This document shows, piece after piece, positions 1 through 49,137 of a stretch of DNA of 64,000 nt (position 1 is the stretch's first letter; each line of letters starts with the position of its first letter). The notes under the pieces are model-generated. The model ran no database searches, was not told where the DNA came from, and was given only the letters and a program-made list of their open reading frames with translations. Position numbers and translations under genes: made by a program. The stretch covers positions 9,312 through 73,311 of the forward strand of contig CAWASW010000001.1 of the NCBI GenBank assembly GCA_963784785.1, given 5' to 3'. The stretch comes from Candidatus Woesebacteria bacterium. GTDB lineage: Bacteria > Patescibacteriota > Microgenomatia > UBA8517.

Positions 1-322
1 ATAGTGGATTAGAATGGCGAGGAGAAGACCAATAGGCCAGAGGTTTTTCTTCTTTGTTGAATATTGCATGATTAGGATTGTAGTTATGTGCATTGGAGTC
101 ACTATCAATATTCTAAAAATTGAAGAATCCGGATTCATTGAATAGAAAATAGCTTCTGAGATAGAGAATAATAGCCCTAAGATGATGGCAGTCTTTGTTG
201 TACTTGAATATTTTGCCAAAAAAAACTTGAAAACTTCCTCCACTACATATGGGTAAGGGAGAAAGCTTTCGATTAACAGCAAAAAAAATGGTGAAACTAG
301 GGCAGCAATATATTCCATGTAA

Positions 323-476: not shown

Positions 477-1214
477 TTAAATCACCCCTTTTCTAAAAAA
501 TTTATTCAACAACAATGTAAGTTCAAATAATATCACAAGTGGCAGTGTTAAAAGGGTCAATGACAATATGTCAGTTGGCGGCATCAAAGCGGCAAAAATT
601 ATAGCTATCATATAAGCAACAGGCCTTCCGGCTGAGAATAGTTTATGAGAAACAACATTAAAATCCATCAACAAACTCATTACTATTGGGAATTGGAAGG
701 CTAGTCCCATCAAGGCAGAAGTTACTAAGACTTGATTCAAAAGCTTACTAATATCTAGCATGTTTCCTATATTTAATTGAGTAGAAGTTGTATAAAAAAT
801 TACAATAACCCATTTCATCATCATGAATCCGAATGCAAAACCGCCTATAAATAACAGGATACTAAGAGGTAAGAAAGTAACTAATGATCTGTACTCTTTT
901 GATTTCAAAGCTGGTCTTAAAAATGTCATTAACTGATATATTACGAGGGGTATAGATATAATAAGACCTACTGATAAAAAACAACTAATGGCAAGGTTGA
1001 TATATTGAAATTGATCAGTAAAAACAATATTAACCCCCTTTAAGTCAATTAAACTTATAATGAAAGATATAATCTGTTGATAATACCAGAATCCTAATAT
1101 ACCAAATAGTAAAAATATCGAAAGTATAAATAATAACCTCCTTCTTACCTCAGCAAGAATAGGGTAATACTTGTTGATATTTTCTTGAACCGATGTAGAA
1201 ATATCTTTATCCAC
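477..1214 (-). CDS. tatC: TatC-like polytopic membrane protein (245 aa, about six TM segments)
   Basis: Size, hydrophobicity pattern and N-terminal amphipathic stretch followed by multiple TM helices fit TatC; flanked on both sides by TatA-like genes in one operon. Confidence 0.6.
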   Translation of the reverse strand: MDKDISTSVQENINKYYPILAEVRRRLLFILSIFLLFGILGFWYYQQIISFIISLIDLKGVNIVFTDQFQYINLAISCFLSVGLIISIPLVIYQLMTFLRPALKSKEYRSLVTFLPLSILLFIGGFAFGFMMMKWVIVIFYTTSTQLNIGNMLDISKLLNQVLVTSALMGLAFQFPIVMSLLMDFNVVSHKLFSAGRPVAYMIAIIFAALMPPTDILSLTLLTLPLVILFELTLLLNKFFRKGVI

Positions 1215-1216
1215 GC

Positions 1217-1357
1217 TTATTTTTCTTCCAAAGCTTTTTTAAATTCCTTAACAGATAATCCAATAGATTTGATAAATTCTGGTAATTTTTTGCTTCCAAA
1301 AAAAACTATGACAAGTAATGAAATAACTAATATTTCAGGTGTTCCAAGTTGTGACAT
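1217..1357 (-). CDS. tatA: Short TatA/E-family protein, second paralogue (46 aa; missed by the ORF track)
   Basis: Manual translation: MSQLGTPEILVISLLVIVFFGSKKLPEFIKSIGLSVKEFKKALEEK*. Its ATG overlaps the stop of the upstream tatA (ATGA-type overlap at 1355-1359). Confidence 0.55.
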   Translation of the reverse strand: MSQLGTPEILVISLLVIVFFGSKKLPEFIKSIGLSVKEFKKALEEK

Positions 1358-1560: not shown

Positions 1561-2859
1561 CTACTTTAACGAAGCAAGAGTAGCTTTTAATTTTGTAGCC
1601 TTTAATATTTGTCCTGCAGTTCCAGGAGTTGTATGACTTGAAATTATTTCGTCCCAAACGGCGTCGGCTATGTCTGTCGCGCTGGCTCCTCCTGCAGGTG
1701 TTTCGATAAACGTTCCGGTACCAGTGTCCCTTGTGGCACCTAAAGTATTTCCAGAGAAGGTGTGGTTAAGTCTGACGCCTGTTCTTGTGACTCCTGTTGC
1801 TATATCAACTCCGTAGCCAATATTATTAAATATTAAATTGTTTTCAAATATTGTATCGGTTATTGAAGTCCCGCTTACTATTGCACCATTTGCACCATTT
1901 CCTGAGAGAATTGATTGTTGGACTTTAGTTCGTGAGGAACTATCTCCAATACTAATTCCTGCAAGTGTTGAATTTTCAATTGCAGAATTCTCAACTTGTG
2001 TTCTAGCAGAACTTGTAATCCGTAATCCGTTTCCTGTTACTCCATTTACCCAAACATTTTTAACTAAGGCGTTGTCTCCTGTAATTGTAATTCCATTGTC
2101 AGTTCCTCCAGCAGCCGTCGAGACGTAAAAGCCTTCAAATTCCACTGAGTCTCCGGAAATATTAACTGTTGGAGAACCAGAAGTTGATGGAATGATTTGG
2201 AGTTGATACCCAGCACCACGAACTTTAAGTGACGATTTAGTAATAGATAATTTTTCAGTTGTTGTAGTAACTCCACCACTTGCGGTTGCTAGGGCAAAGA
2301 TAATATCGCCTGCACCAGCAGTTGCTAAGGTTTGAGCCTTGGAAAAAGTTGCAACTGCGTTTGACGGCGTCAATCCATCATTTGCGTCACTGCCTGAAGT
2401 TGGATTCCAATACCAAATAACGCCAACAGATCTATTTCTACCCCGCATGCTTTCAAGCATATAAAGCATCCCGTAATTTGCATCTGATTGGATAATAGTA
2501 GGGGATGAACTTTGTGCAATATTTATCTGAGTAAATGCTGTAGCTTTAAGAGGGTTGTTCCCGTATTGATTAATGGCGACTAGATTTCCTCCTGTGACCA
2601 TACAGGAGGTTGTATCAGGTCCACTTCTAGCTTCAAAAGCAATTCTCCAATCGTTTACTAATTCAAGTGTTATTCCTATGTAACTTCCACCCCCTAATGC
2701 TTGTTTACCATACGCATTAGCAATTAGAGGATAATCCATGTTTGTTAATCTTTCTTCATAGAGCCTAATTTGATTTATGAGATCTTGACAAGTTACAGAA
2801 GTTTGAGGCGAATCAACTTGAATTACTTTTTCGGATTTAAAGAAAGTAAGTGTTGCCAT
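1561..2859 (-). CDS. Right-handed parallel beta-helix (pectate-lyase/tailspike-like PbH1) repeat protein, 432 aa, no signal peptide
   Basis: Repeated about 22-residue units such as NGITITGDNALVKNVWVNGVTGNGLRITSSARTQVENSAIENSTLAGISIGDSS typical of PbH1 beta-helices. N-terminus MATLTF resembles the other two large proteins in this block. Confidence 0.55.
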   Translation of the reverse strand: MATLTFFKSEKVIQVDSPQTSVTCQDLINQIRLYEERLTNMDYPLIANAYGKQALGGGSYIGITLELVNDWRIAFEARSGPDTTSCMVTGGNLVAINQYGNNPLKATAFTQINIAQSSSPTIIQSDANYGMLYMLESMRGRNRSVGVIWYWNPTSGSDANDGLTPSNAVATFSKAQTLATAGAGDIIFALATASGGVTTTTEKLSITKSSLKVRGAGYQLQIIPSTSGSPTVNISGDSVEFEGFYVSTAAGGTDNGITITGDNALVKNVWVNGVTGNGLRITSSARTQVENSAIENSTLAGISIGDSSSRTKVQQSILSGNGANGAIVSGTSITDTIFENNLIFNNIGYGVDIATGVTRTGVRLNHTFSGNTLGATRDTGTGTFIETPAGGASATDIADAVWDEIISSHTTPGTAGQILKATKLKATLASLK

Positions 2860-2861
2860 TA

Positions 2862-3689
2862 TTAATTAAAAACCGAGATATTAAGTGTTTTGGTAAGTTT
2901 TCCATCAATCATAGAATAAGTATAGTCTTGACCGATTTTTAAAGCGAGATACTTTTCAGGGATTTCGTCAACTGTTTCCTGTTGAATAAAACTTTGGTTT
3001 TCTGTATCAAAGATAAAATTGATAATATTTAGTTTTGTGTTTTTTGGTAATTTTCTCAAATTAAAACTACTTAAATTGATAATTTTGGAATCTATCTTTG
3101 TAAGTGATATCAAACCTCTATCAAATAACGCAATGAATTGACTAATATTTTCTGCAACTTTAGTTGAAAATTCTGTTACAAACTTTTCATTAGTTTGGTT
3201 ATTGATTAAATATTCTAATAAATGGCGATTTACTAAAACTACTTCACTTTTCTTGTTAGTGCAAAAAAATATTAAAGTATCTCGGTATTGAAAAAGGGGA
3301 TTCAGATGATATAGATTTATTACATTCTTAATATTAGGATCTATTTTGATAGTAGTCAAATCATAAATATTTACGTTATTGGGTAAATAACAATTCAATT
3401 GAGAATTGTAAATTCTACAGCCGATTTCACCGGCTATATTTTTTATTAAATTAATTGTTATGTTGTCATCAGGGGAAACAATAATGGTTAATTGCCCAGA
3501 AGTTTCTACTTTAATATGTGCGGTTGTTGGGGTGCCTATGTAATAAACAGTTGCAGAAGTTTCGTTTTCTTTTTCTATTTCTATGTCACCAGTAAAAGAT
3601 ATAAAATATTCTAAAATTTTACAAAAAGCATTTTTGGAGTCGTAAGGCTCATTGTTTGGCCTTAGATAATAATTTATTTGCGTCATCAA
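2862..3689 (-). CDS. Hypothetical protein (275 aa)
   Basis: Long ORF packed tightly between neighbouring genes; no recognisable motif. Confidence 0.45.
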   Translation of the reverse strand: MMTQINYYLRPNNEPYDSKNAFCKILEYFISFTGDIEIEKENETSATVYYIGTPTTAHIKVETSGQLTIIVSPDDNITINLIKNIAGEIGCRIYNSQLNCYLPNNVNIYDLTTIKIDPNIKNVINLYHLNPLFQYRDTLIFFCTNKKSEVVLVNRHLLEYLINNQTNEKFVTEFSTKVAENISQFIALFDRGLISLTKIDSKIINLSSFNLRKLPKNTKLNIINFIFDTENQSFIQQETVDEIPEKYLALKIGQDYTYSMIDGKLTKTLNISVFN

Positions 3690-3885
3690 TATCGTTAACT
3701 AATGAATCTATCATTCCTTGGACTCTTTCTAATTCAATATTTTCTTTTTCAATTGCTTCTTCAAAAACCATTATATTTTTGTGTATCTTTTCTTTGTATT
3801 TAATTAAATCATTGATTCCAAATTGACGGACTGTCTTTAAATTTTCTAGTTCCTCTCTGGTTTTTGTAATTTTTATCTTTGTCAT
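3649..3885 (-). CDS. Small coiled-coil protein (78 aa)
   Basis: Charged heptad-like sequence (ELENLKTVRQ...IELERVQGMIDSL); start overlaps the stop of the next small ORF. Confidence 0.4.
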   Translation of the reverse strand: MTKIKITKTREELENLKTVRQFGINDLIKYKEKIHKNIMVFEEAIEKENIELERVQGMIDSLVNDIDDANKLLSKAKQ

Positions 3886-4061
3886 CTTGATGTCTCGATA
3901 ATCGCAATCATCTGGAATATCCTATTAATTTGAGCCTCAGATTTAGTGATTTCATCTTGGAAAAGTTTGATACTTTGTCTATGCTTGGCGACTTCTCTTT
4001 CGAGATCTTCCTTTTTGTATCTAAGCGCTTCCTCTTTTGTTACGGGGAGATTAGGATTCAT
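3882..4061 (-). CDS. Small coiled-coil protein (about 59 aa; not in ORF track)
   Basis: Manual translation MNPNLPVTKEEALRYKKEDLEREVAKHRQSIKLFQDEITKSEAQINRIFQMIAIIETSR*; stop overlaps the ATG of 3649..3885 (ATGA). Confidence 0.35.
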   Translation of the reverse strand: MNPNLPVTKEEALRYKKEDLEREVAKHRQSIKLFQDEITKSEAQINRIFQMIAIIETSR

Positions 4062-4076
4062 ATGGTTATGATAGCA

Positions 4077-4469
4077 CTAACTTGTTAGTTTGTCCCAAAA
4101 ACTTTTCCTTTTGAGGTCTTCATCTGTATCTAATTGACTTTTACTAATAAACTTTCCGTCAGGACCTCTTGTAACTCTTTTTTGGGGGACTAACACTTCT
4201 TCAGTGGTGGCAATTGCAACTGGCTCGGTTACAGGTTCTTCAGTAACTATTTCCTCAACCTTAGCTTTCTTTTTATTTTCTTTTTCAAGTTTTTTTTGTT
4301 CTTCTAACTGATTCAAATAATCTTGCTCTTTGATATAATCATCAATTTCTTTTTTCAATTCTTTTTCTGAATTTTCTCGAAATACTACATTTCCTGATGC
4401 GTTTCTTGCAATATGCATATATCGATCTCCATTTAGTGATATTGATAATTCGTGTTTTTTGTAAATCAT
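4077..4469 (-). CDS. Hypothetical protein with Glu/Lys-rich central region (130 aa)
   Basis: ORF between two large genes; low-complexity charged linker. Confidence 0.4.
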   Translation of the reverse strand: MIYKKHELSISLNGDRYMHIARNASGNVVFRENSEKELKKEIDDYIKEQDYLNQLEEQKKLEKENKKKAKVEEIVTEEPVTEPVAIATTEEVLVPQKRVTRGPDGKFISKSQLDTDEDLKRKSFWDKLTS

Positions 4470-4483
4470 ATTAATTTAGATAA

Positions 4484-6907
4484 TTATACAAATATTGTAT
4501 CAGATGTTCTAACGACAGAGACGTTTGTAGGGTTTGCACCAACCACAGACGAGTCCTGTTCAAATGGCAATATATTACCTGCTTGTCTTGCACGAACTCT
4601 GATATATATATCAGAGTCAGTAGATGAGTGGGTGATAGTGATTGCTTCAGATCCTGGGGTTCCTGTTGAACCAGTAGTTTCATACGAATCTATAAATGGT
4701 ATATACCATGTGTCTTGAGGAGAAACTGTTGTAGCAACTGGTAAACAATTAAATTTGATATTATCTGCTGTTGTTTGTCCTGTAATTGCTGGAAAAATTG
4801 TCACGTTATCTGCATCCACAATAGCCGTAATATATGAAACAGCATTAGATTGAGTAATATTCATTACTAAATCTCCAACCACACTTGCAGTTCCTAGCCC
4901 AGTACTCTTGATATTTGTTGTCGTTGTTCCGGCAGCAGCAGATGCTACGTTAGTATATGCAAGCGTAAATGTTGATGAGGTCCAGCTAGAAAATCTAATT
5001 CTATATTCTTTTGTAGCTGATGTGTCAACTAATCTTATGACTCCACCAACAGATTTTCCAGGGGAATCTGTTGTGACAGCTGATCCCATAATCGCAGTTG
5101 TGGCGGCTTGTGCTTGAACTGTTGCATTATATTCAGCCTTGTTTATATCTCCTCCTGAAGCAGTTAATCTAAAGACTGCAACTTTATCTCCTGCACGGGT
5201 ATTTGAAACTGTTATTGTTGCTTTTGTAGGAGCAAGACGTACTGTACCATTGTCATCAACCAGCTGAAAATTGTTTGCATCTCCTGTTTGATAATCAGCA
5301 AGAACTACTCCAGGTGCACAGAAGAATTTTCCACCGGCAAATGTTCCAAATGGGGCAGCTGCAATAGGTGTAACAGCTGATGCTTCAGTATTTGGCGTAA
5401 ATGTTCCTAGAGCTGTATCATCGGTAACAATGTTTGAGGTGTTAAATGTACCTCTTGAATTACGGAGGATAACTATTTTATCTGTAGTATTTACTTCGAC
5501 AATTGTCCCTTTTGCTCCTGACACTGCTTGAGTACATGTATTTCCTTCTGTAAATGACCCAGAAATTGAACCTGAATATCTTAACCTGTAATCTGACCCA
5601 ATATAGAATTGACCTTGTAGTCCATCTGTATCTGTCGTTGCTGTCTCACCACGTCTCGTTACATATTTTGAATATTGATAGACATTGGCCAAAGAATTTT
5701 GATTACAGTCAATTGTGATCGAGTAGTTTTCAGGTGTTCCGTTTTCATCAATGTCGCTTGTTCCTCCATCAGCCATACCACCATGAGTAATAACTGGTGC
5801 TGTACCAAGTGCTGCTGGTCCTGCAGCTGCAGGTGTACCTGCTGTAACTGTTGCCCCTGATGTTGCACCTGTTATTGAAGTGTCTGCATTTGCAAAATTG
5901 GCAATAGGGTCACCAATTAAATAATAAGTTATAACAGGAGTTGTACCAGGAGTTCCTGTTACAGCAGTGATGACCCCTTTTTTGTCAGTTCCAGCTTTGG
6001 CAATAACTTCACCTGCTACAAATGTTCCAGTGCCTGATGATCCTGTAAATGTCCAGAAGCCAGTTTGGTTATCCAAATCGTTACCAGTCTGGAGAGGAAT
6101 AGGGTTACGACCACCATTGGTTAAGTCCACAATGTAATATGAATAAGTTTTGGAATATTGACGGGCTAAAACTGTAATGTATCCTTCATCAGTTTCAACC
6201 CCTAATTCTTTAGTGTTGATCAAAATGTCAATATGTCCATCGCCCCACCAGTCTGTGGTATCTTTGTAGGCTGTTAAGTTAGTACCATTTTGATTAATAT
6301 ATAAATGAGTATTAGATTCGATTGTACCAAGTGTATAGATATTGGCCCAAAGTGATTCACCTGCAGATATACCAACTCCTGATTGTGTATCAGTATGGGC
6401 GTTACAAACGATATTACCAGATGAATAATTAAAATCATGAGTCGAAGCATTGCTTGTAGGCCTAATCCAAAGAGTTGATCCGTTTACATCTAAAAGTGTA
6501 CCAGTAGAAGTTCCATTAGAAGTAATGGTGTTTCCAATATCTCCTGCAACTATGTTTGTACCAGTTCTGGTGACCTTTATTATCCCTGTATTTGTAGTGG
6601 TAACGCGATCCCAAGAAGCTGTTTTTAAAGCACCGCCTGTTAAATGCTCAACTGTTGATCTATCGATGAACCATGGATCCTTATCACCGGCATCAATGAT
6701 ACCTATTGTATATTCAGTAGGGGTTTGGGCAGACATTGGGACACCATCGTCCATCTGATTCAATTCATCAAACAAGTCTTGAAGTGCTGAGTAAAGTTGA
6801 TTTACTGTTCTTGTTCCAGTGGCAGAACCAGTCCACATGATTTGTTTCCTGCGGTTTTCTGCACTGTAATAAACTGTAAAATCTCCACTTAATATTGTGT
6901 CTGCCAT
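4484..6907 (-). CDS. Large Thr/Gly/Ser-rich beta-strand protein (807 aa), paralogue of 8321..12163, no signal peptide
   Basis: C-terminal motif SDIYIRVRARQAGNILPFEQDSS matches [24 protein letters not shown] at the C-terminus of the 1280-aa protein. N-terminus MADTIL resembles the other two (MATLTF, MATITI). Confidence 0.55.
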   Translation of the reverse strand: MADTILSGDFTVYYSAENRRKQIMWTGSATGTRTVNQLYSALQDLFDELNQMDDGVPMSAQTPTEYTIGIIDAGDKDPWFIDRSTVEHLTGGALKTASWDRVTTTNTGIIKVTRTGTNIVAGDIGNTITSNGTSTGTLLDVNGSTLWIRPTSNASTHDFNYSSGNIVCNAHTDTQSGVGISAGESLWANIYTLGTIESNTHLYINQNGTNLTAYKDTTDWWGDGHIDILINTKELGVETDEGYITVLARQYSKTYSYYIVDLTNGGRNPIPLQTGNDLDNQTGFWTFTGSSGTGTFVAGEVIAKAGTDKKGVITAVTGTPGTTPVITYYLIGDPIANFANADTSITGATSGATVTAGTPAAAGPAALGTAPVITHGGMADGGTSDIDENGTPENYSITIDCNQNSLANVYQYSKYVTRRGETATTDTDGLQGQFYIGSDYRLRYSGSISGSFTEGNTCTQAVSGAKGTIVEVNTTDKIVILRNSRGTFNTSNIVTDDTALGTFTPNTEASAVTPIAAAPFGTFAGGKFFCAPGVVLADYQTGDANNFQLVDDNGTVRLAPTKATITVSNTRAGDKVAVFRLTASGGDINKAEYNATVQAQAATTAIMGSAVTTDSPGKSVGGVIRLVDTSATKEYRIRFSSWTSSTFTLAYTNVASAAAGTTTTNIKSTGLGTASVVGDLVMNITQSNAVSYITAIVDADNVTIFPAITGQTTADNIKFNCLPVATTVSPQDTWYIPFIDSYETTGSTGTPGSEAITITHSSTDSDIYIRVRARQAGNILPFEQDSSVVGANPTNVSVVRTSDTIFV

Positions 6908-7037
6908 GCTAAAAAATTATATATACTGCCCTTTAACTAATAATTAGTTTGCACTATTCAATAGAGGCCTGTCAACTGATAATAAGTGTATCAAATGAGT
7001 CGGAATTGATACATTTGCGCCGAGAAAGAAATAGTAG

Positions 7038-7517
7038 TTATGGATTGAGAACCGATGTTTTGGTATTAGGCTCAGATGGTGAAAAGTGAACTTCATTTTT
7101 ATTATTAGGGATTAAAAAGTTAGCTATTCCGGCAAGGACATAGAAAAACATTGGTACTATAAGCATTGCCCCTCCATAGGAAATTGCTAAGGTCCAAAGA
7201 GTTGGGGTAATTTTAACTCCGGTTGCCATCTGTTGAAAGGCATAAATTTCAGCAATAAACGCTAAAAATGCGGATATTCCAAGCTTCGTAAAATATTGTT
7301 TTTCTACCGCCGATAAAATTAAAGTTATAGATAGCATTAGAGCAATTGACCGAGTGATTACAGCAACAAATGTCATTGGGTATGTATTAAAATAAATTTT
7401 ATTTAAGAAAGCTAGAGGAGTTAGAACCCCAAGGTTTAATGATCCTGCAAAATAATCAAGTGCGTAGGCAAGTAAAAACAAACAAATAGTAATAACAAAT
7501 AATATTTCCTTTTTCAT
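7038..7517 (-). CDS. Integral membrane protein (159 aa, 4-5 TM)
   Basis: Hydrophobic segments throughout; function unknown. Confidence 0.45.
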   Translation of the reverse strand: MKKEILFVITICLFLLAYALDYFAGSLNLGVLTPLAFLNKIYFNTYPMTFVAVITRSIALMLSITLILSAVEKQYFTKLGISAFLAFIAEIYAFQQMATGVKITPTLWTLAISYGGAMLIVPMFFYVLAGIANFLIPNNKNEVHFSPSEPNTKTSVLNP

Positions 7518-7588
7518 ATCTAGAATATATACGAGATATCAAAATTAATCAAATTGACATTTTTATGGAGTACGTACTACACTAAAAT

Positions 7589-8296
7589 ATGAGAAAAATT
7601 ACAAAGATTACTGAAGGAGTTTTTTCAACACTTGTTGATATGTCTTTGTTTACTATCTTTTTTGGTATTTCAGGTGATGTCACAGGAAAAGCTGCCTTGA
7701 AGATGAAAGATGAAATTAATTACGATGCTTTGAAAAGATCATACAAAAATTTAGAGAAGAAGGGTTTAGTGCAAGTCATAAAGGAAAAAAATGCACTTCC
7801 CAAGATAACTGAAGAAGGTAAAAAACGTTTAGCTTCAATTTTACCTAAATATAATAAAAACAGAACATGGGATGGTAGGATTTATTTAGTTATATATGAT
7901 GTTCCAAAAGAAAAAAATAAAGTTAGGGACTATTTGCGAAATTATTTAATTAAAATAGGATGCGGAATGCTCCAAGATAGTGTTTGGCTAACTCCGTATA
8001 ATCCAAAAAAGTTAATTGAAGAATTCATAATTAAATATAAATTGGATTTTGATTCAATCATCATTTCTTCAATTGGTAAGGACGGAACTGTTGGGGAGCT
8101 AGAACTGACTGACTTGGTTGTAAAGGTTTATAAATTACAAAGTCTAAATGCTAGATATAATGAATTTTTAAAAACTAAGAGTCCAATGGACTTTTTATCA
8201 GTCCTGAAAGATGATCCTCAACTTCCTTTTGATCTACTACCGGATTGGTGGGTGGGCGATGAAGCTAATATCGTTTTTAACAAATTGACATTTTGA
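7589..8296 (+). CDS. PaaX-family-like transcriptional regulator (N-terminal wHTH, C-terminal PaaX_C/Cas2-like fold)
   Basis: WDGRIYLVIYDVPKEKNKVRDYLRNYLIKIGCGMLQDSVWLTPY matches the conserved PaaX C-terminal core (W-x-W-LVxYDlPe...R..LR..L..GfG.lQ.SVWv). Confidence 0.5.
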   Translation: MRKITKITEGVFSTLVDMSLFTIFFGISGDVTGKAALKMKDEINYDALKRSYKNLEKKGLVQVIKEKNALPKITEEGKKRLASILPKYNKNRTWDGRIYLVIYDVPKEKNKVRDYLRNYLIKIGCGMLQDSVWLTPYNPKKLIEEFIIKYKLDFDSIIISSIGKDGTVGELELTDLVVKVYKLQSLNARYNEFLKTKSPMDFLSVLKDDPQLPFDLLPDWWVGDEANIVFNKLTF

Positions 8297-8320
8297 TGGA
8301 GTACGTACGATAGAGATACG

Positions 8321-11300
8321 TTAGACATTTGGATCAATAAGCTGGCTTACATAGACACTTGAAATAAGTGTGGCATCAATAATTGTATTTGTCTCAAATG
8401 GTATATATCTATTCCCAGTTGAAGACTTTCTTACTCTAATCCTTAAATTGTCAGAAACAGAGGCATTAACTTCCAAGGCAACCGTGCTTGATGAGGCAGT
8501 CCCTGTTGTTAGTTGCGCATCAGTTGTTACATTATAAATTTCATAAGTTGAGCCAGAGATTACATTCGTTAAAGTTAAGGCAACCAAATCAAGCGGATAT
8601 TGGTAACCTTGGGCAGTAGCTGTACTTACAGTTGATATTGCAAGATTAGTTAGTGAATTTGTAGCATTTGAAACAAGTGCCATGAGTCTTACTTTTAATT
8701 TAAATCCAGTTAAGGCTGAAGTTATTGCTTCTCCATTGAGTGCAGAAAAAATCATACTTTGAGAAGTTCCACCTGACACAGAGTTACCTGTAATTGTACA
8801 AGTTGTCATTGCTGCGTTTTTTGCTGTAACCGTTGTACCAAGGGTTAAGTTTCCTGGAGTAGTTAAGTCAAAGACATAATCTCCGACGTTAACACCATAA
8901 AAACTTTGTGTTCCTGTAATTGTAGTTGAAGATTGTGTAACTGTTGTATTAATTGTATATGTTCCAAGACCACCTCTTCCTGTTCCGAATCCGGTAATAA
9001 AATATGTGTTTGCAGTTAGTGAACCACCAGAAAGTAACATATTAAGCATCACAACACCTGATGTAACAGTAGTTACGGTTAAAGTAGTTCCAGAAATATC
9101 TCCAGTAACAACTGCCTTTGTACCGGTTGTAAGTGTTAGAGTTGTAGTATTTGTGACTGCAATATTTGTAACTCCTGGTTCAAGATATAAATTTTTATAA
9201 GTTCCACCAAATCCTGAACCATTATCAATTTGATAGGCAAGCCATTGATTTTGTGGGTTTGTAGAAACCAGTACTGGTGGAGCAGAGGTGGTACTAGAAG
9301 TGAACGCTGTGTGCCCGATTACATAATGCTGATGAGTCCAAGTTAACTGATCACTAGCATTTGGATCTTGAATAACTCCAACGGAATTAAATCCAAAACC
9401 GGTTCCTGCCTGATCAATTGTGTAGGTCGACGCAGACGGTTCGACATTTGTTTTTTCATTACAAGACAATGAAATTTTGCCAGCTGTAGCTGATGAAAAA
9501 TAATCCTGCCAATGGTAACCATAAACAGATGTTTGTCCAGTAGTTGATGCATTTCCCTTTATTCCTTTCATTTGTGCATTAAGTGCACCTAAAATTACGT
9601 TGTCTGCAGTATCTCCCCAAACATTTTCAAATTTTAGTTTATTGATGGAGTTATCAACTGTAGTAAGTGCTGTAAGTCCTGTTGAAAATGCAGACATATA
9701 AACTCTTTTAAATTCAATATTGTTTAACCCTGATCCAGCAGCTGAAACTAAAAGCTGAACGGTAGTATTGGCCGAACCTGCACTAAGAGGAGTTGTAGCC
9801 GTTCCTATATTTCTAACTTTGATATTAATACACCCTGTGATAATTTGAAACATCCCAGTTAGCGGTTGTAAATTAGTAAGCCCAAAGAAATCAACTCCGT
9901 CAATTTTAATTGTGTTACTGTTAGCGCTTAGTGAAAATACATAAGTACCTACTGTTGAACCTGTTGTGCCGCTGATTAAATCTCTATACGATGTCGTCGT
10001 AAATGTAATATCGGTACATGTAACAATAGACATTACTGCACCAGTATTGTCTGTGTTTGTAAATGTAAATCCATTACATCTTGTTAATAATAAATTTGTA
10101 CTGGTTGCAGATCGCCTAATTGGATAGACCCTCATCGTTAGATTTACAAAATCAAAATCAAAACAGTCGGTAAAAGTAGTTCTTGAGACAGCAGTTGTAC
10201 CTGAAGTGGCGACGTGACTATTAAGGGACAAATCAGTAATAGTTCCACCAGCAAAGCAAAGTGAAACAGCAAGGGGAAGAAGTGCTGCGTTTGTGGCTGC
10301 AATACCATTTCCACAACCAACCCGAGTCATTGTAAGAGGTGTGGCAAGCTCTGAAATAAGCATGATGTCCATGTATTGCATGTCGACTAAACTAATTGAA
10401 TAACATTGGGCCATGTTGAAATACCAAGTAGTTGATAGCCTATCTATATTTATGACAGCTGCCTGAGTTGTTGCCAGCTCATATCTATTGGCTGCAGTTG
10501 CTGACGGAGCTGAATTTGCATTTGCTCCAGTAGTTACAGCTTTTGTGCTATTCATCGTTACGACATTTGGAACTCTTATTTTAAGTCCGCTTACAGGTAA
10601 ATAACCGTTATTATTTGTTCCGTCACTTCCAATACGAAGTAACCCTTGTGAAGAAATCCAACAGACCTTGCCGGTCTCAGCATTTGTTGCAACTGTTCCC
10701 ACGGCCGCTGCAAGCCCTGTTGACGGGTAAAATTCATAAGCGTCTGATCCTACAGATGTTTCAATCCAAACTCCTGGGTAGTATGTATTTGCAAGTGTTG
10801 CAGGCAACTGAATTTGTTGATTTGCTACACCTGAAGTACAAATTTGGGTTGAAAAATCTCCTTGGACAGATGCACTTCCCCCGGGGTCAGAAAGCATTGT
10901 GTAGGTTAAAGTATCAGCCGTGGGAACTGATACAACAGTAAATGTGCCATTATATGCAGAAGGTGTAGCGCCTGTAACTGTAATAATACTTCCAACATCT
11001 ACACCGTGAGCAACTAATGTCAAAGTCGCCGTAGTTGTGACATTTGTAATTGTTGTCGATGTTTTTGAAATTAGCCGTGGATAGAACCAATCTCCAGTAA
11101 CCACAAAACTACCAAGTCTTGGAACCGTTAACGTTCCTGCCCCTGCATTATCAGTTCCTCCTGCAATTTCTATCCAACCAGTAAACTCCGGTGTAATTGC
11201 AGTTAATGCCGGAGTTGTACCACCTTCAATAGTTAGTGCACCTCGTGCAAAATTACCACCATTTACATTTTTTACTTTAACCCAGCCGTTTGCTGCCATT

Positions 11301-12163
11301 GCCGCTGCACCATTTGTTCCTGTGGGGTTGGGAAGTGCGTTAAAAGCTGACCAGATACCCAAGAAATTTGAATTAATATTTTTAGTAACTGTTCCAAAGG
11401 CAGAGCCTGATCCTCCAGGGTCAGCTCCTAACCAATAATCAACTGTGTCGGTTGTTGCAGCAACAACAGCAAATGTTCCGTTGTAACCTGCAGGAGTTAC
11501 TCCAGCAACAGCTATCAAATCTCCAACAACGAGGCCATGACCAGCGGACGTTATTTGTGCCACCCATGGTATTGCAGCTCCTGATACAGTCGCGACTGTA
11601 ATAGTTAATGCGTTTCCTGTTGGTTGATAACATCTGAAATATCTTACAAATTTACCGTTCGTTATAGTTGAAGTCCCTGGATCCGTTGAAACTGGATATT
11701 TCATTGTAGTTGATGTTGCTGCAATTGCATTGAATCTTCCGTTGTAACCATTAGGAACAACTGCCCCCATAACTCCACCAACTCTAATCGAGTAAATTGT
11801 TCCAAGAGTTAAGCCGTGGGCCGCCGTTGTGATAGTTACAATTCCAGATGCATATGATGCCGCCGAAATTGCGATGCCTAAAAATAATGCAGGAGGCGTA
11901 CCCGAACCAGATTTATATGGAATAAGCTCGACCGCAGTTCCATCAAAAATTACATCCCCTCCTGTAGTAGGGGAAATTGTAGTGTTATCAAACGATCCAT
12001 TGTTTCCCGTAGCAGCCCCAACATGGCTTGAGCAGTATCTGGTATCAGTATCAACAACTAACTGTGCATTATTGTTAATTGAGAATAAGTTAATTGTGGT
12101 GCTTGCTGTCTGTCCAAATAAGCAATCGTAATTTATATCTGCGTTTATTGTAATTGTTGCCAT
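8321..12163 (-). CDS. Very large Thr/Gly/Ala-rich beta-strand protein (1280 aa), no signal peptide, with three about 50-aa YNGxF repeats
   Basis: Three tandem repeats ([33 protein letters not shown]...DPGTS / [27 protein letters not shown]...DPGGSGS / [28 protein letters not shown]...DPGGSAS). C-terminal IRVR..PFE motif shared with the 807-aa protein. Confidence 0.55.
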
Positions 12164-12165: not shown

Positions 12166-13245
12166 TTAATTAGATTTAATCTTTTTTCTGCTTTTCAGTA
12201 ATCTTTTAATTTCTAGATCAAAATCAGATACATAATTTTTATCTTGAACTTTTCTATATTTCTCAAATTCTTGTTCTGCAAGCGCCGTTGCAACTTCATG
12301 GCTAACTTTACCTGCATTTTTTAAAATTCCTTTTCCCAATAATAACAAATATTCGTCAAGTTTAAGTATCCAATCTTTCATAGTCATTGTGAGTTCATCT
12401 CTTGCTTGTATTTCGGCAAATGATAAATAAGCATCGACTATTCGATTTAGTTTTTCAAGTTCGTTTTGATTAAGATAATTTTTGGCGATAGAAATATCTT
12501 TCTGAATAGGGTGGAGCCCTGAAAAATTTGTAAGTCCCATAATGGGTTTATTACTATCCGCACGTTCTGCAATTATTTCTGCAGCAGTCTTACCAGTTAC
12601 AGCAAAATGCATTTTATTTTGAACAGTTTTAAAAAACAGATCAGTTTCTTTTGCATCTTTGCGATAATCAATTGCAGTTGCATAGATATCAGTTACCTTT
12701 TGATACAACACCCGCTCACTTGAACGAATGTCTCTGATTCTTTCCAAAAGCTCTTCAAAATAACGAGATTTATATCCACCTTGTTTTAAACGAGTGTCAT
12801 CCATAGTAAAACCCTTGACCATATATTCCTTTATTTTTTCAGTGGCCCATTGACGGAACAAGGTTCCACGAGTTGAATTAACTCGATAACCAAGTGCGAC
12901 AACGGCCTCCAAACTATACATTTTAGTTACATATTTTTTCTTGTCACGAGCAGTTGTCAAGAAATCCTTGACAACTGAAATTTGATCTAATTCATTTTCC
13001 TTAAATATATTTTTGAGGTGAAGACTAACGTTTTGCTTTGTTGTGTCAAAAAGTTCAGCCATGAGTTTTTGTGATAACCAAACATTTTCGTGTTCAAAAC
13101 GAACTTCAACTCTAGTTTTGCCATTATCTGTTTGGTAGATAATAATTTGTGATGATCTGTTTTCCATGGTATTGGTAGATATTTGAACTTGTAAGAATTC
13201 CTTACAAGTTGAACTGTCGAGAAATCCTCGGTAGTTAATTATCAT
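12166..13245 (-). CDS. RhuM-family protein (Virulence_RhuM / Fic-associated DNA-binding family)
   Basis: N-terminal [48 protein letters not shown] and overall 359-aa length are characteristic of RhuM family proteins. Confidence 0.65.
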
Positions 13246-13284: not shown

Positions 13285-15036
13285 ATGTTAAACTTACAAA
13301 AAATGAAAGTTACGGATTTGATTCAAAAAGGGAACGAAAATGCAGTAACAGGTAACTATAAACTTGCGATAAATTTTTACAAAAAGGTCATAAAAATAGA
13401 TCCAAAAAATGTTATTGCCTGGGGTAATTTAGGCTCAATGCAGGAAAAAATAGGACAAGATGAAGAAGCCTTGTACTCAATAAAAAAGGCAATTGAATAT
13501 GGTCCAGATTATGAAATTGGACTTTACAACTTAGCTCTTCTTTTAATTAAACTAAAAAGGTCAGAAGAAGCTCTAGTTTACCTTGATCGGGCAATTTCAT
13601 TAAATCCTAATAAAATTGATGCGCATTTTAATAAAGGTATCGCAATGCAACGTTTGGGAAATACCGAGGAACAGCTAAAGTCTTTTGAGAAAGTTCTTCA
13701 AATTAAACCAGATTATCCAGATATCATGAATAGATTATGGTTTCTGTACCGTCAAGTGGGAGACTTTGGGAAAGCAGAAAAATTAGAGTTTAAATTGGGT
13801 CAAGGGCATGATCCATTCATAAGTTTAGTTAAATCAGAAGATCCAAAGGAAAACTTGGAGGTAGCCAAAAAAGTTTCTGGTAAGTTATCTGGTTTTGCTC
13901 TAAATTCTAAAATTAAATTTAAATATTCCAAGAGTTCTAAAATTAGACTTGGCTATTTTTCTAATGACTTGAAAGAACACCCAGTTGGCCAAATGGTCTC
14001 TTCAATGTTTAAACATCATGATAGAAATAAGTTTGAAGTTGTGGCCCTATCATACGGTAAAGATGATGGCGGTGAAATAAGAAAAACAATTAAAAAAAAC
14101 GTAGATGAATTTGTAGATTTATCCGGCAGAATGACGGATTTTGAAATGGCCAAGATTATAAATAGTAAAAAAATAGATATCCTGATTGAAATGACAGGGT
14201 ATACAAAAGACACAAGGCTTGGTGTTGCAAGTTTTAGGCCTGCTCCAATTCAACTTCACTTTCTTGGTTTTCCAGGAACACTTGGGGCTGATTTTATAGA
14301 TTATGCAATAGTTGACGAAATAGTTGTTCCCAAAAACGAACAGATTTATTTTACTGAAAAACTTTTGTATTTACCAAGATGTTATCAAGTAAACAGCGAA
14401 GTTAAAATACTAGACAAAATTTACAAAAGAGAGGACTTTGGATTACCCAAAACAGGTTTTGTCTTTGGGTCATTTAATCAGATTTATAAGATAGACAAAA
14501 CAATTTTTACTGTTTGGATGAATATTTTAAAAAGAGTTCCTGAAAGCGTTTTGTGGCTTTTGAACCAATTTCCAGAGTGTGAGATAAATTTAAAAAAAGA
14601 AGCAAAAAGGCAGGGAGTTGATCCTAAACGAATAATATTTGGAAAACATATGCCAAAGTCAGAACATTTAGGACGGCTAAAGTTAACAGATTTGGGGCTA
14701 GATACAATTAATTATGGAGGCCATACAACGACAACTGATTATTTATGGAGCGGAGTACCTGTTATTACAAAATTTGGAAGCCATTTTGCCTCCCGAGTTT
14801 GTTCATCAATTTTATCTGAAGTTGGGTTAAATGAATTAATCGTCAAGGATTTAGAAGCATATGAAGATTTAGCTGTAGAGCTTTCAAATAATCCCAAGAA
14901 ATTAAATAAATATAAAGCTATAATAACTCAAAGTAATTTAAAAACAAACCTATTTGATACAAGTGGGTTTGTCAAAGATTTAGAAAAGATATACACAAAA
15001 ATATATGCTAGATATCACAGAAAAAAGACTAATTAA
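13285..15036 (+). CDS. TPR-repeat protein fused to GT41 (O-GlcNAc-transferase-like) glycosyltransferase domain
   Basis: N-terminal TPR units (AWGNLGSMQEKIGQDEEALYSIKKAIEY...). The C-terminal half has GYFSNDLKEHPVGQMVSS and HTTTTDYLWSGVPVITKFGSHFASRVCSSIL, typical of SPINDLY/OGT-type GT41 catalytic regions. Confidence 0.65.
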   Translation: MLNLQKMKVTDLIQKGNENAVTGNYKLAINFYKKVIKIDPKNVIAWGNLGSMQEKIGQDEEALYSIKKAIEYGPDYEIGLYNLALLLIKLKRSEEALVYLDRAISLNPNKIDAHFNKGIAMQRLGNTEEQLKSFEKVLQIKPDYPDIMNRLWFLYRQVGDFGKAEKLEFKLGQGHDPFISLVKSEDPKENLEVAKKVSGKLSGFALNSKIKFKYSKSSKIRLGYFSNDLKEHPVGQMVSSMFKHHDRNKFEVVALSYGKDDGGEIRKTIKKNVDEFVDLSGRMTDFEMAKIINSKKIDILIEMTGYTKDTRLGVASFRPAPIQLHFLGFPGTLGADFIDYAIVDEIVVPKNEQIYFTEKLLYLPRCYQVNSEVKILDKIYKREDFGLPKTGFVFGSFNQIYKIDKTIFTVWMNILKRVPESVLWLLNQFPECEINLKKEAKRQGVDPKRIIFGKHMPKSEHLGRLKLTDLGLDTINYGGHTTTTDYLWSGVPVITKFGSHFASRVCSSILSEVGLNELIVKDLEAYEDLAVELSNNPKKLNKYKAIITQSNLKTNLFDTSGFVKDLEKIYTKIYARYHRKKTN

Positions 15037-16698: not shown

Positions 16699-17773
16699 TT
16701 TTTTAAATTTCTTTGTAGCTGCTGCCATTTCTTCTTGTACGGTATCCGTTAATCCTGCAAGCTTTGAAAATAATATATCTGATACATTAAATTTTAGTAT
16801 TTCAAATAATGATGAAACAGGTAATCCGATAAGATATATCAGAATTACTTCTCCGTCCTCCAACTTTGTTATAACTTCAGCAAATGGGCCTCAAATTACA
16901 GGCGCTGGAATTAGTGACCAAACAGCAAATATCAAAGTCAATGATATTGATTCTGGTGGGTCTGTTGATATTGGCCTTGGTGTAAATACATTAAATGCAC
17001 AAAATCAGGCTAGCTGGAGTGTTTCTGTTACAGACGATGTTGATGGTAATAATTTAGTTGGGTGCAGTGGAGATACCGGAGTTACCATTACTTCACCTGG
17101 GCAAGCCACGGTAGTAATATCTAATTTATCTGTTGCTGTTTCTGATAGCAGCGCCACAATGTCATGGAGTACAGCGGTTTCTGCCAGTACAATTGTAGAA
17201 TATGGAAAGACCGAGCAATATGGAAGTACCGCAACAGGAACCTCAGAGACTAATCATTCTATAAATTTACCAAGTCTATCTGCAGATACTCAGTATTATT
17301 ACCGTGTAACAAATACTGATGCAGTTGGGAATGTAGCACAAGTCTCAGGAAATTTTAGAACTGCGGTGGCAGGAATAAATACTGAAACAATAGTCACAAC
17401 AACTACGACGGTTACTAATACTGTAAATGTTACAAAAACTTTAGTAGATACTACGCCACCAACAATTCGATTTAAAACTACATTTAAAAAAATATATGAA
17501 GAGGCACCTTTAATTGAAATAGTTTCAACCGATGGGACGGGGATAGCAAGAGTTGAATATTCAATAGATGGGGGAAAGAACTACATACCTATCGGCATTG
17601 AAACTGTTGGAAGTAAACAATTAGTTTCAGAATTTACTCCAGACGCAGTCGAAGATGGAGATTATTCATTACAGGTTAGAGTGACCGATACTACGGGAAA
17701 TAGGACTCTATCTAAAGAAATAAAATTTACGATAGACAGGCTCCCCCGAGACCGTTACATTTCGGTCTCCTAA
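16691..17773 (+). CDS. 5' portion of a surface protein gene (FN3 and Ig-like domains) split by the MITE insertion; its last 9 codons and stop come from the MITE
   Basis: FN3-like segment SATMSWSTAVSASTIVEYGKTEQYGST...DTQYYYRVTNTDAVGN. Removing the MITE and one TSD copy restores an in-frame junction ...FTIDRLP|PRVGPLTVMAGP... with ORF 17930..18700. Confidence 0.55.
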   Translation: MFDFLNFFVAAAISSCTVSVNPASFENNISDTLNFSISNNDETGNPIRYIRITSPSSNFVITSANGPQITGAGISDQTANIKVNDIDSGGSVDIGLGVNTLNAQNQASWSVSVTDDVDGNNLVGCSGDTGVTITSPGQATVVISNLSVAVSDSSATMSWSTAVSASTIVEYGKTEQYGSTATGTSETNHSINLPSLSADTQYYYRVTNTDAVGNVAQVSGNFRTAVAGINTETIVTTTTTVTNTVNVTKTLVDTTPPTIRFKTTFKKIYEEAPLIEIVSTDGTGIARVEYSIDGGKNYIPIGIETVGSKQLVSEFTPDAVEDGDYSLQVRVTDTTGNRTLSKEIKFTIDRLPRDRYISVS

Positions 17774-17942
17774 AACACACTGATTTTACTATACTTTCGG
17801 CCTAAAAAGGTAGTTTCACTAAGTAAACGCTTCTACAACCAATTTCAGCATTGTCCGAGTAATCGGACGAAAGTGTTATTATTTTAACGAAAAACAACAA
17901 ATCATTTAAGGCTAAACAAGTGACCGTTTATGCAACGGTATC
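17748..17942 (-). mobile_element. MITE copy A (about 195 bp), flanked by a 9-bp TSD GGCTCCCCC; inverted relative to copy B
   Basis: 100% identical, reverse-complemented, to 21089..21281. Termini match the TIRs of the IS at 24734..25904. The interior has three hairpins (GAGACCG-N8-CGGTCTC, GTCCGA-ttac-TCGGAC, ACCGTT-N6-AACGGT). The direct repeat GGCTCCCCC abuts both ends. Confidence 0.65.
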
Positions 17943-21064: not shown

Positions 21065-21088
21065 AACCCCTGAACCGACGATGAAAGA

Positions 21089-21281
21089 TACCGTTGCATA
21101 AACGGTCACTTGTTTAGCCTTAAATGATTTGTTGTTTTTCGTTAAAATAATAACACTTTCGTCCGATTACTCGGACAATGCTGAAATTGGTTGTAGAAGC
21201 GTTTACTTAGTGAAACTACCTTTTTAGGCCGAAAGTATAGTAAAATCAGTGTGTTTTAGGAGACCGAAATGTAACGGTCTC
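21089..21281 (+). mobile_element. MITE copy B, flanked by a 9-bp TSD ACGATGAAA
   Basis: Exact reverse complement of 17748..17942; ACGATGAAA is present on both sides. Confidence 0.65.
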
Positions 21282-21628: not shown

Positions 21629-21935
21629 ATGTCAACCAAAGTTCTAATTACAGAAGATGATCCTTTGATGAGTAGAATGTATCAAAAGATTTTTACTTTT
21701 GAGGGTTATGAAGTAATTATGGCAGGGAACGGTGAAGAAGGCCTTGAAAAAGCTAAGCTCGAAAAACCTACAATAATTCTTCTTGATGTCATGATGCCAA
21801 AAATGAATGGGTTACAGATGCTTGAGAAACTCAAGCTTGATCCAGATACCAAAAAAATTCCTGTAATTATGCTTACTAATTTGGCTGGCGAAAAAGATGC
21901 AGAAAATGCAATGAGTAAAGGTGCAGTAAAATATA
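21629..21935 (+). pseudogene. CheY-like single-domain response regulator truncated by IS insertion; the displaced 3' end lies at 23067..23169
   Basis: REC domain motifs (ITEDD, ILLDVMMPKMNG, IPVIMLTN, K in AMSKGAVKY) end at the IS boundary. After the IS, the duplicated 8 bp continues the original frame: ...AVKYIVKSEFEPKQIVDMVKEILAGYTRDSIPETK*. Confidence 0.65.
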
Positions 21936-21963
21936 GGCTTAATGGAACTAATGTGTTGTTTTT

Positions 21964-22491
21964 CTAATCCTGTTTTGTTTTATTATCGGCCTTCATTTTT
22001 TCAAAGTTGTAATAATATACAAACCATTTAAGGTAACTTTCCCAACGAGTCTTTTTAAGGCCTTTATGTCTTAACCATCTTTGTCCTATATGCCCAAATG
22101 TAGCTTCAATTTCATTTGTTGTTTTTGGCATAGTTGGGTGGTCTAAAAACTTGAATGAGGTTTTTGGAAGTTTAATTAGGATCCTGACAGCTTTTCTCAC
22201 ACCTTTATGAATATACCAACTGTGGCCAGAATCATCTGTCCTCATCTCTTTCAGAAAGAAGAAATTAGCCTTAACCCAATCTTTTAAGATTGTTTCCCAG
22301 TATTTCAAAGCTTCATGACTTTCTATGAACCAAATGTGGTTTGCAATTTTTATTAATTCTTCAATTCTTCTATCTTTTGAGTGTCTACCAAGTGCATTTA
22401 CAATATCTCTATGCATATGAGCAAGACATATCTGATGTGGAGAGTGGGGGATACACTTCATCAACCGCAGAACAAATGGCAGTTCCTCCAT
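21964..22491 (-). CDS. Transposase C-terminal part (+1 frame relative to 22409..22987; junction at a C5 run)
   Basis: HQICLAHMHRDIVNAL continues the alignment with the 24752 transposase (VWQLCQNHYKHNL). Frames fuse if the C-run in tatCCCCCactc is one shorter. Confidence 0.6.
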   Translation of the reverse strand: MEELPFVLRLMKCIPHSPHQICLAHMHRDIVNALGRHSKDRRIEELIKIANHIWFIESHEALKYWETILKDWVKANFFFLKEMRTDDSGHSWYIHKGVRKAVRILIKLPKTSFKFLDHPTMPKTTNEIEATFGHIGQRWLRHKGLKKTRWESYLKWFVYYYNFEKMKADNKTKQD

Positions 22492-33894: not shown

Positions 33895-33929
33895 ATTTAG
33901 TATTATACCATAATAGTACTAAAACGTGT

Positions 33930-49106: not shown

Positions 49107-49137
49107 CTAGGCTTAATGGAACTAATGTGTTGTTTTT

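Follow-up and report, generated by a model that had tools for sequence, protein, structure and literature searches.

A phage receptor-binding gene module apparently turned chromosomal gene set, linked to tatA and tatC in Microgenomates and WWE3 bacteria

Background

WceF of Pantoea stewartii is a chromosomally encoded, trimeric exopolysaccharide hydrolase of the tailspike fold with a P22-like N-terminal domain; its twin-arginine translocation (Tat) signal serves export in the folded state, the enzyme acts on the cell's own glycan, and a phage origin has been proposed for it (PMC7949094). Here we describe a gene block that bears comparison with this system, found in a stretch of 64,000 nucleotides (hereafter "the window") from a Candidatus Woesebacteria bacterium (assembly GCA_963784785.1, contig CAWASW010000001.1, positions 9,312 to 73,311), a member of the candidate phyla radiation (CPR). 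The block encodes three large proteins, several small ones and components of the Tat translocase, and it appears to be a phage receptor-binding (tail-fibre/tailspike) module now fixed in the chromosomes of Microgenomates and WWE3. Its genes, named after protein length in amino acids (aa), are the following.

8321..12163, minus strand: p1280, large variable fibre/spike protein with a C-terminal module (C-module) at its end
7038..7517, minus strand: p159, small multi-pass membrane protein
4484..6907, minus strand: p807, all-β, multi-domain protein with an N-terminal domain (N-domain) and the C-module, more conserved than any other member of the module
4077..4469, minus strand: p130, conserved N-terminal domain (SLNGD..IAR) and a Lys/Glu-rich linker
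3882..4061, minus strand: p59, small coiled-coil protein
3649..3885, minus strand: p78, tandem paralogue of p59
2862..3689, minus strand: p275, fold unassigned, without domains
1561..2859, minus strand: p432, tailspike-like protein with an N-domain, a right-handed β-helix and C-terminal helices
1357..1542, minus strand: TatA/TatB-family protein of 61 aa (NCBIfam tatAE/tatB models at E 1e-9 to 1e-11, below the curated cut-offs)
1217..1357, minus strand: TatA of 46 aa (Pfam TatA_B_E on the identical gene of the related locus L002)
477..1214, minus strand: TatC of 245 aa (Pfam TatC on the identical L002 gene), last gene of the string

Like WceF, p432 is a chromosomal β-helix protein with a phage-type N-domain that is conserved in its lineage. 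However, WceF is the product of a single gene in an exopolysaccharide cluster and has a cleavable twin-arginine signal, whereas the block is multi-gene, with three large and several small proteins, lacks signal peptides and is connected to Tat genetically only. Its N-domain belongs to another family without a solved structure, its host is a CPR bacterium, and the WceF chain was not among the listed PDB sequence or fold matches of p432.

Phage complexes of several tailspikes or branched receptor-binding proteins (CBA120 TSP1-4, G7C gp63.1/gp66), together with tailspike depolymerases (P22, Det7), offer a second comparison. The β-helix of p432 matches those of CBA120 TSP2 and Det7, the N-terminal domains are conserved and the distal parts variable, and the proteins of neighbouring genes probably dock to each other, to judge from gene order and domain sharing. 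The block differs in that no sequence or fold match to XD/gp10-like adaptors or to the P22 head-binding domain was obtained, in that its upstream proteins are conserved at the C-terminus and not at the N-terminus, and in that this copy lies outside any virion gene set. The small proteins p59 and p78 (about 60-80 aa, α-helical and probably coiled-coil), whose genes sit between fibre genes in phages as in cells, presumably resemble fibre chaperones of the T4 gp57A type.

Tailocins (R- and F-type pyocins) are likewise domesticated phage structural genes whose fibre genes are exchanged with phages, and they need tube, sheath, baseplate and lysis genes in their cluster. A reading of the window made from its letters alone (the sequence-only reading) had called the block "tailocin-like"; searches of the window and of the loci syntenic with it gave no tube, sheath, tape-measure, baseplate or lysis genes, and this label is not supported. 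In the phoD-tatAd-tatCd genes of Bacillus subtilis, a substrate gene is co-transcribed with its own Tat translocase, and PhoD has a canonical twin-arginine signal. The block is similar in that its candidate cargo gene, p432, immediately precedes tatA and tatC within a single unit, but p432 and its partners lack such a signal. The hallmarks of S-layer proteins or Sec-dependent adhesins (a cleavable Sec signal; SLH, LPXTG or another wall anchor) were not found in the block proteins; p1548, p2122 and p771, described with the surroundings of the block, carry by contrast signal or transmembrane segments.

Results and discussion

Homologous modules in phages

The clearest relative of p1280 is the 854-aa product of CDS 32717-35281 in MW202577, a complete circular 39.6-kb Caudoviricetes genome from Manatee Spring, where the gene ends the late region. 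The two proteins are 37% identical over p1280 residues 422-986 (tblastn, E 7e-90), and the homology with this late-module protein extends beyond that core to the N-terminus of p1280 (aa 1-92) and to the C-module. In MW202577 the p1280-class gene is followed by genes for a 467-aa "structural protein", with a weak match to the N-terminal region of p807, and for a 152-aa protein that corresponds to the N-domain of p432 alone (E 1.5e-6). Searches with p807 and p432 themselves gave no match in GenBank phages.

Scanning IMG/VR with the p807 family alignment yielded 87 loci at 26-60% identity, a number that, like those from the other collections, comes from a pattern-limited scan and is no census, and some of the IMG/VR contigs of 350-450 kb may be cellular. 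In L016 a portal gene and a gene for a head-like protein lie upstream on the same strand, and a set of 89 ORFs (open reading frames) taken from upstream of p807-like genes has PHROG matches to portal (7) and major head (6) proteins as well as to large terminase, prohead protease, tail and replication families. The C-module ends 73 of the 77 ORFs (511-3655 aa) that stop within 400 nt upstream of a p807-like gene; p1280-like genes occupy the directly upstream position in L009, L015, L025, L030, L043, L050 and L055. Downstream of the p807-like gene, a gene that begins with the p432 N-domain is present in all 57 viral loci and in 52 of 56 genome loci. Between 0 and 250 nt after the p807-like stop codon, p59-like genes occur in 32 viral loci, and p130-like N-domain genes follow it at 2-177 nt in five phage loci; p130 is also conserved among the cellular loci. 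Beyond the N-domain the phage copies of p432 are highly variable (total lengths 109-887 aa), and many of them share the motif AVWDE..H..G..G and a ..KFLGLK tail with p432.

A conserved anchor combined with a swappable distal part is what one expects of a receptor-binding protein. The module appears to consist of a variable protein with the C-module (p1280), followed by p807, by p130/p59/p78, and by p432 with its homologous N-domain. The sequence-only reading had proposed a receptor-binding or tail-fibre cassette, and this is supported by the similarity of p1280 to the MW202577 protein and by bona fide phage contigs in which homologues of p807, p59, p130 and the p432 N-domain keep the order of the block. 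It had named a lack of phage-derived homologues as a finding that would refute it, but such homologues proved to be abundant, and its suggestion of an uncalled ORF of about 59 aa at 3882-4061 is confirmed by the conservation of p59, in phages as well.

The adjacent p807 N-region and p432 N-domain were also found in the same order on contigs assigned to unrelated bacteria and archaea, namely in archaeal bins (L142, L143, L150), Desulfarculales (L146, L147) and a Gemmatimonadota chromosome (CP070792.1, L152), and likewise on two viral contigs of 67% GC (L050, L055). The phage module is therefore much wider than the phages of CPR bacteria. A further connection to phages comes from repeats in the N-terminal part of p1280, recognized in its translation.

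10856..11866, minus strand: three repeats of about 60 aa (AHGL..G....V.G......YNG.F.V) in p1280, at approximately aa 100-165, 190-255 and 366-436

The copy at aa 366-436 matches PHROG 9998 (E 4e-10), and the p1280 repeat is 55-60% identical to segments of proteins from Yersinia, Pantoea and Klebsiella phages, some of them annotated as endosialidase. p1280 has no match in Pfam.

These distributions bear on the direction of transfer. If ancestral CPR envelope proteins (e.g. self-assembling surface fibres) had been captured repeatedly by CPR phages for adhesion, the cellular copies might be expected to show the highest conservation and the most uniform architecture, as they do; the interleaving of cellular and phage alleles described below and the wide variation of the phage p432 copies past the N-domain would fit as well. 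We nevertheless consider this direction unlikely, given that the N-domains and the C-module occur in phages and prophage-like contigs of unrelated hosts (the 67% GC contig L050; Desulfarculales, Gemmatimonadota and archaeal bins), that the phage copies sit in canonical late structural modules, and that the p1280 repeat is present in tail proteins of enterobacterial phages. The cellular proteins, moreover, are without any secreted-envelope feature, whereas p1548 and p2122 of the same window have signal or transmembrane segments.

Conservation of the block in cellular genomes

More than 1000 homologues of p807, with full-length identities of 54-86%, come from WWE3 and from Woese-, Beckwith-, Levy-, Roizman- and Blackburnbacteria, on contigs of up to 841 kb; 878 representative clusters of the family were also recovered. 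For p432 there are more than 300 homologues with full-length identities of 54-89%, nearly all of them 431-445 aa long, on contigs of up to 1.05 Mb. The order p807, small genes, p275, p432, tatA, tatC is syntenic in Microgenomates (L003, L004) and WWE3 (L005, L006) and spans Woese-, Roizman-, Beckwith-, Levy-, Davies- and Shapirobacteria as well as WWE3; the outer flanks differ by lineage, with a sensor kinase on one side in one and HrcA/NusA/IF-2 in the other. Among the 66 loci recovered from the species representatives of GTDB, about 40 combine, all on the same strand, a p807-like gene with tat genes and with a p432 of full length (43-88% identity). The titles "uncultured Gammaproteobacteria" and "Pseudomonadales" borne by some of these entries (L089, L091, L094-L101 and others) are probably wrong, as they contain a CPR-type block with 60-88% identity.

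Comparison with four relatives gave ratios of nonsynonymous to synonymous substitution (dN/dS) of at most ~0.09, with dS saturated. In the closer of these relatives dN was 0.10-0.13 for p807 and p432 while TatC, compared between the same genomes, had 0.20-0.25; in 45 of 59 loci the conservation of p432 exceeds that of TatC. The block is thus under strong purifying selection, and p807 and p432 evolve more slowly than TatC. p275 is faster than both, with a dN about twice that of p807.

The cellular versions have two additional genes, p275 and p159, which the phages lack. All 53 homologues of p275 are from CPR bacteria, and an HMM (hidden Markov model) search for it returned cellular loci and no viral ones. 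For p159, tblastn identified many genome loci (27-70% identity) in which the gene recurs upstream of p807 or beside tatA, and an iterative HMM search found it in 38 cellular and 0 viral loci.

We found no capsid, portal, terminase or integrase families among the ORFs of the 64-kb window, in agreement with the earlier statement that this is not an intact prophage; the genes and attachment sites by which an intact or a defective prophage would be recognized (integrase, terminase, portal, capsid, attachment sites) were not found in it. The sole integrase-like signal is a phage-integrase SAM-like N-domain with which the unrelated 2122-aa protein p2122, 29 kb away, begins. No other phage genes accompany the block in the syntenic cellular loci. 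A decaying prophage remnant without cellular function, placed next to tat by chance, would still agree with the phage origin of the genes and with the mobile elements (IS66-like, Mutator and RhuM) in the window. It is, however, strongly disfavoured already and in our opinion highly improbable, since the ORFs are intact and of full length in hundreds of genomes, dN/dS is low (see above), order and spacing are conserved over class-level lineages with differing flanks, and cell-specific genes have been added.

The block could alternatively supply fibres to a particle (a tailocin, a gene transfer agent or a defective prophage) whose tube, sheath or head genes lie at another place in the genome. 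Gene transfer agents with split loci are known, and the conserved N-terminal anchor-type domains and the exchange of fibre alleles with phages would suit such a role. CPR genomes are, on the other hand, only about 1 Mb in size, we know of no such conserved particle reported in CPR bacteria, and no tail, sheath, baseplate, head or lysis genes were found in the window or in the flanks of more than 100 related cellular loci, all of which makes a particle of this kind very unlikely. Chromosomal fixation, a single operon with the tat genes and purifying selection lead us to propose, therefore, that the cell itself appears to use the module. Among the terms offered by the sequence-only reading, "domesticated" fits best, as the block is chromosomal, lineage-wide and apparently under purifying selection.

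In a neighbour-joining tree of the first 300 residues of p807, which is crude and indicative only, the tat-linked cellular sequences fall into at least six groups interleaved with phage clades. This suggests repeated exchange of alleles at a fixed locus. A role in anti-phage decoy or exclusion, in which cell-made copies of the fibre and spike proteins of the cell's own phages are incorporated into progeny virions and cripple them, or else remove (by a receptor-destroying β-helix) or mask the phage receptor, and so block related phages, has to be weighed here. In its favour, cellular and phage p807 alleles are as much as 60% identical over the full length and interleaved in the tree, suggesting continuing exchange, the N-terminal anchor-type domains are kept, and both the RhuM-family gene (a PADLOC candidate defence gene, PDC-S05) and a Cas2-like regulator neighbour the block. 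Defence genes, however, usually turn over fast and have a patchy distribution, whereas p807 and p432 belong to the genes that evolve most slowly at this locus and the block is near-universal over many class-level lineages instead of sporadic. PADLOC matched none of the block proteins, only the two neighbours, and the linkage to tat is left unexplained by this model, which we regard as improbable.

In the WWE3 loci, genes of the bAvd / 23S_rRNA_IVP four-helix-bundle type flank p432 and the tat genes (L005, 1194-1574 and 8088-8366; L006, 6219-6572 and 8817-9245), and an IS200-type Y1 transposase is encoded upstream of p807. bAvd genes are accessory genes of diversity-generating retroelements.

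Relationships among the large proteins

The three large proteins begin with MATLT (p432), MADTI (p807) and MATIT (p1280), and none of these N-termini has a hydrophobic stretch; an in-frame upstream extension is not possible because no earlier start codon lies between the start of each ORF and the preceding stop. The three proteins have a high content of Thr (12-16%), Gly (10-11%), Ser (8-10%) and Asn (6-7%). The similar N-termini without signal peptides and the biased composition had both been read correctly from the letters. The same reading took the three proteins for paralogues, which holds only locally. Pairwise blastp of p432, p807 and p1280 with composition correction gave nothing at E<0.01, and the matches obtained once the correction was switched off therefore reflect composition; paralogy over the whole length was rejected. 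Homology appears to be limited to the C-module, common to p1280 and p807, and to a remotely related N-terminal domain in p807 and p432.

The C-module, as had been proposed for these two proteins, is a common segment of about 60-100 aa (..IRVR....PFE..).

8333..8638, minus strand: C-module of p1280 (aa 1176-1277), matched at E 6e-28 by an HMM built from the C-termini of other loci
4493..4663, minus strand: C-module of p807 (aa 749-805, ..SDIYIRVRARQAGNILPFE..), matched at E 1.7e-4 by an HMM that had some p807-class C-termini among its members

Because of that membership, independent evidence for the C-module comes from tblastn, in which the C-terminus of p1280 retrieved p807-class C-termini in L115, L118, L126, L129 and L131-133. 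For the N-domains of p807 and p432, hhalign gave E 0.15 with profiles of CPR sequences only and E 2.4e-5 (probability 75%, 74 columns) after inclusion of phage members, and in the AlphaFold models the first ~100 residues of both proteins have the same strand-strand-strand-helix order. Neither the two N-domains nor the C-module has a solved structural relative according to PDB sequence and profile searches.

Searches of all block proteins against Pfam, PHROGs, NCBIfam and PADLOC matched only Beta_helix and PHROG 9998. The former covers residues 240-365 of p432 (E 3e-9), and the AlphaFold model of this protein (predicted local distance difference test score, pLDDT, 85) comprises the N-domain (aa 1-125), a right-handed β-helix (~aa 150-380) and C-terminal helices, so that the β-helix first recognized from the letters is well established. 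The helix opens with the usual "GSD.NDG...P...A......GD" cap, and the C-terminal part contains the AVWDE..H..G..G motif. Foldseek matched the model to the alginate C5-epimerases AlgE4/AlgE6, pectate lyase Pel9A, a rhamnogalacturonan lyase and pectin methylesterases and, among viral proteins, to Geobacillus virus E2 ORF18 and to the CBA120 and Det7 tailspikes, the kind of family with which the earlier reading had asked for comparison; the family profile gave a weak β-helix match to AlgE4 among PDB sequences (E 5e-4). Invariant Asp, Glu and Arg residues line the helix and are compatible with an enzyme, although they are no proof of one.

The AlphaFold model of p807 (pLDDT 81) is a string of β-domains with weak matches to phage structural and baseplate proteins in BFVD. 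An identity with the T7 nozzle protein gp12 was considered and rejected, gp12 not being among the Foldseek matches. Segments matching the p807 profile also occur, sometimes in several copies, within the giant proteins P0269 (4263 aa), P0387 (3159 aa) and P0327 (2250 aa). Of the small proteins, p59 and p78 are similar in blastp at E 0.026, and HMMs built from each converge on the same gene set.

Linkage to the tat genes

The ORFs of the block are real, lie at the positions listed above, and are all encoded on the minus strand, tightly packed with intergenic gaps of 2-18 nt or overlaps, including the ATGA overlap of p59 and p78 that had been read from the letters. An 18-nt gap separates the stop codon of p432 from the 61-aa tatA gene, whose stop codon overlaps the start of the 46-aa tatA. 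The terminator scan found no minus-strand terminator-like site within the gene string, and the promoter scan of the locus was at chance level. The sequence-only reading placed a Tat operon immediately downstream; the Tat genes are indeed there, and they appear to be more than mere downstream neighbours, belonging to the same conserved, tightly packed string. One gene on the opposite strand separates p1280 from p159 and interrupts the block:

7589..8296, plus strand: PaaX-like / Cas2-like regulator (Pfam PaaX_M, E 1.6e-15, and PaaX_C)

This gene is not found at the equivalent position in L003, L005 and other loci and is accordingly no conserved part of the block.

The co-oriented, tightly packed string from p159 to tatC recurs in more than 60 loci of Microgenomates and WWE3. 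In 61 cellular loci a tat gene comes less than 4 kb after a p432 of full length, both on the same strand, and the apparent gap is at most 200 nt in 24 of them. Conversely, starting from TatC, p432 is directly upstream in 27 (23 of them full length) of the 39 metagenome loci with enough upstream sequence, as retrieved with a six-sequence TatC alignment. The connection between Tat and the block is statistical and operonic only. For cargo such as a folded β-helix oligomer, Tat would be the obvious way out of the cell, and the linkage gains weight because the WceF precedent has been published (PMC7949094).

A possible function and its difficulties

Taken together, we favour, with a probability of roughly 0.55, the explanation that the block is a domesticated, chromosomal phage receptor-binding module whose products assemble into one complex that acts on a surface glycan and is exported folded. 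p1280, p807 and p432 would assemble in the cytoplasm into a single fibre or spike complex, with the small coiled-coil proteins possibly serving as chaperones or adaptors. Docking would proceed head to tail from p1280 through p807 to p432, as suggested by the pairing of the C-module of one gene with the N-domain of the next. The complex may act on a conserved surface glycan, which could belong to the envelope of the cell itself or to that of a partner cell, with p432 as the putative glycan-binding or glycan-cutting subunit; the fold matches of its β-helix and the glycosyltransferase genes adjoining the block speak for a role of this kind. It probably recognizes a conserved CPR envelope glycan, because binding to the CPR surface is required of the phage copies, to which the cellular copies are as much as 60% identical. 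The complex would leave the cell already folded, most plausibly via the co-transcribed Tat system, by a non-canonical signal-less route or by hitch-hiking; the precedent for folded export through Tat is WceF, which does have a Tat signal. A more specific version, in which a phage-derived three-protein complex is exported signal-less by Tat, with p275 and p159 as possible adaptors, and forms an attachment or glycan-cutting surface organelle, is speculative and on balance doubtful.

Several observations weigh against the favoured explanation. No twin-arginine or other signal peptide was detected in the block proteins of the window and of ~150 related loci, and in the AlphaFold models of p807 and p432 the N-termini are β-strands of folded domains. 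The window does encode an ordinary Tat substrate, an ORF at 23194-23805 (minus strand) with a canonical twin-arginine signal (..ERRKFLKLIGAAGGSLFLMTVF..AEA; TIGR01409, 20.8 bits, above the cut-off) whose true start is probably an internal Met, giving ~142-147 aa; the translocase therefore seems to be a general one, not dedicated to the block. p432 is missing from about 30% of the related TatC loci, and in a few cases the block has no tat genes nearby, so the linkage could be inherited synteny. The block proteins of CPR bacteria may use Tat without a signal, hitch-hike, or not be exported at all. The polyphyletic, interleaved cellular and phage p807 alleles also fit an arms-race or defence role, and the C-module could be a folding or trimerisation nucleus instead of a docking site. 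p807 has no convincing PDB match by sequence, family profile or Foldseek, and the structural comparison of its model proposed with the sequence-only reading thus gave the weak BFVD matches and nothing firmer. Whatever is said here on function beyond homology and synteny is inference.

Surroundings of the block

The rest of the window (G+C about 33%) is ordinary CPR chromosome, with genes for Leu-tRNA synthetase, two-component sensors, glycosyltransferases, ComEC and insertion sequence (IS) elements. The contig itself is contained in Logan run ERR12037365, and its closest named relatives are Woesebacteria. Upstream of the block are GT41, FkbM-methyltransferase and GT1 genes, i.e. the glycosylation cluster noticed in the letters; glycosyltransferase genes adjoin the block here, but the link is inconsistent across loci. 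GT41/TPR genes lie beside the block or tat in the window (13285-15036, plus strand) and in L093, L100, L102, L118, L121, L192 and L226, and where TatC loci are without p432, two or three such genes in tandem immediately precede tatA/tatC (L221, L229, L230, L231). N-x-S/T sequons, which should be enriched in the large proteins if GT41 N-glycosylated them, are not.

A RhuM-family gene (12166-13245, minus strand) abuts p1280, and RhuM is also found near p1280-like genes in L088 and L107. The region past TatC (window 1-318, minus strand; L002 12662-15437, left of the window) has a CPBP-like 119-aa membrane protein, and its other strand encodes a third TatA (47 aa) and the 771-aa protein p771, which has a Sec-type signal and repeats ("AVWGY..RTLT") that recall the phage-fibre AVWDE motif. 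Two giant Thr/Gly/Ser-rich proteins with N-terminal signal or transmembrane segments, p1548 (34319-38965) and the larger p2122 (40904-47272), are encoded on the minus strand, with a Wzy_C/TPR membrane protein between them (39130-40896). Two 1133-bp copies of an IS66-like ORF pair (21934-23066 and 49108-50240) are 100% identical, and a perfect 195-bp inverted repeat (17748-17942 / 21087-21281) brackets the region from ~17.9 to 21.1 kb.

Implications

Our searches of the searchable literature brought up no account of such a cluster from CPR bacteria. Two aspects are new: a phage receptor-binding module with an invariant three-gene core and no solved structure, which is apparently widespread in environmental phages, and its apparent fixation across Microgenomates and WWE3 in a string with tatA and tatC, with conservation above that of TatC and with cell-specific genes added. 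The C-module and the N-domains of p807 and p432 may serve as sequence markers linking uncultured phages to CPR hosts. p432, p807 and p1280 are testable proteins, and they raise the question of whether Tat can move cargo without a signal. The ultra-small CPR bacteria account for a large part of bacterial diversity and are thought to live attached to other cells, and their surface machinery is almost unknown; in the block there is now a concrete candidate, be it for such machinery or for some conserved interaction with phages. If the more specific version with signal-less export and a surface organelle were true, its products would be Tat cargo of a new class, and no surface apparatus specific to this group of CPR bacteria would have been identified before it.

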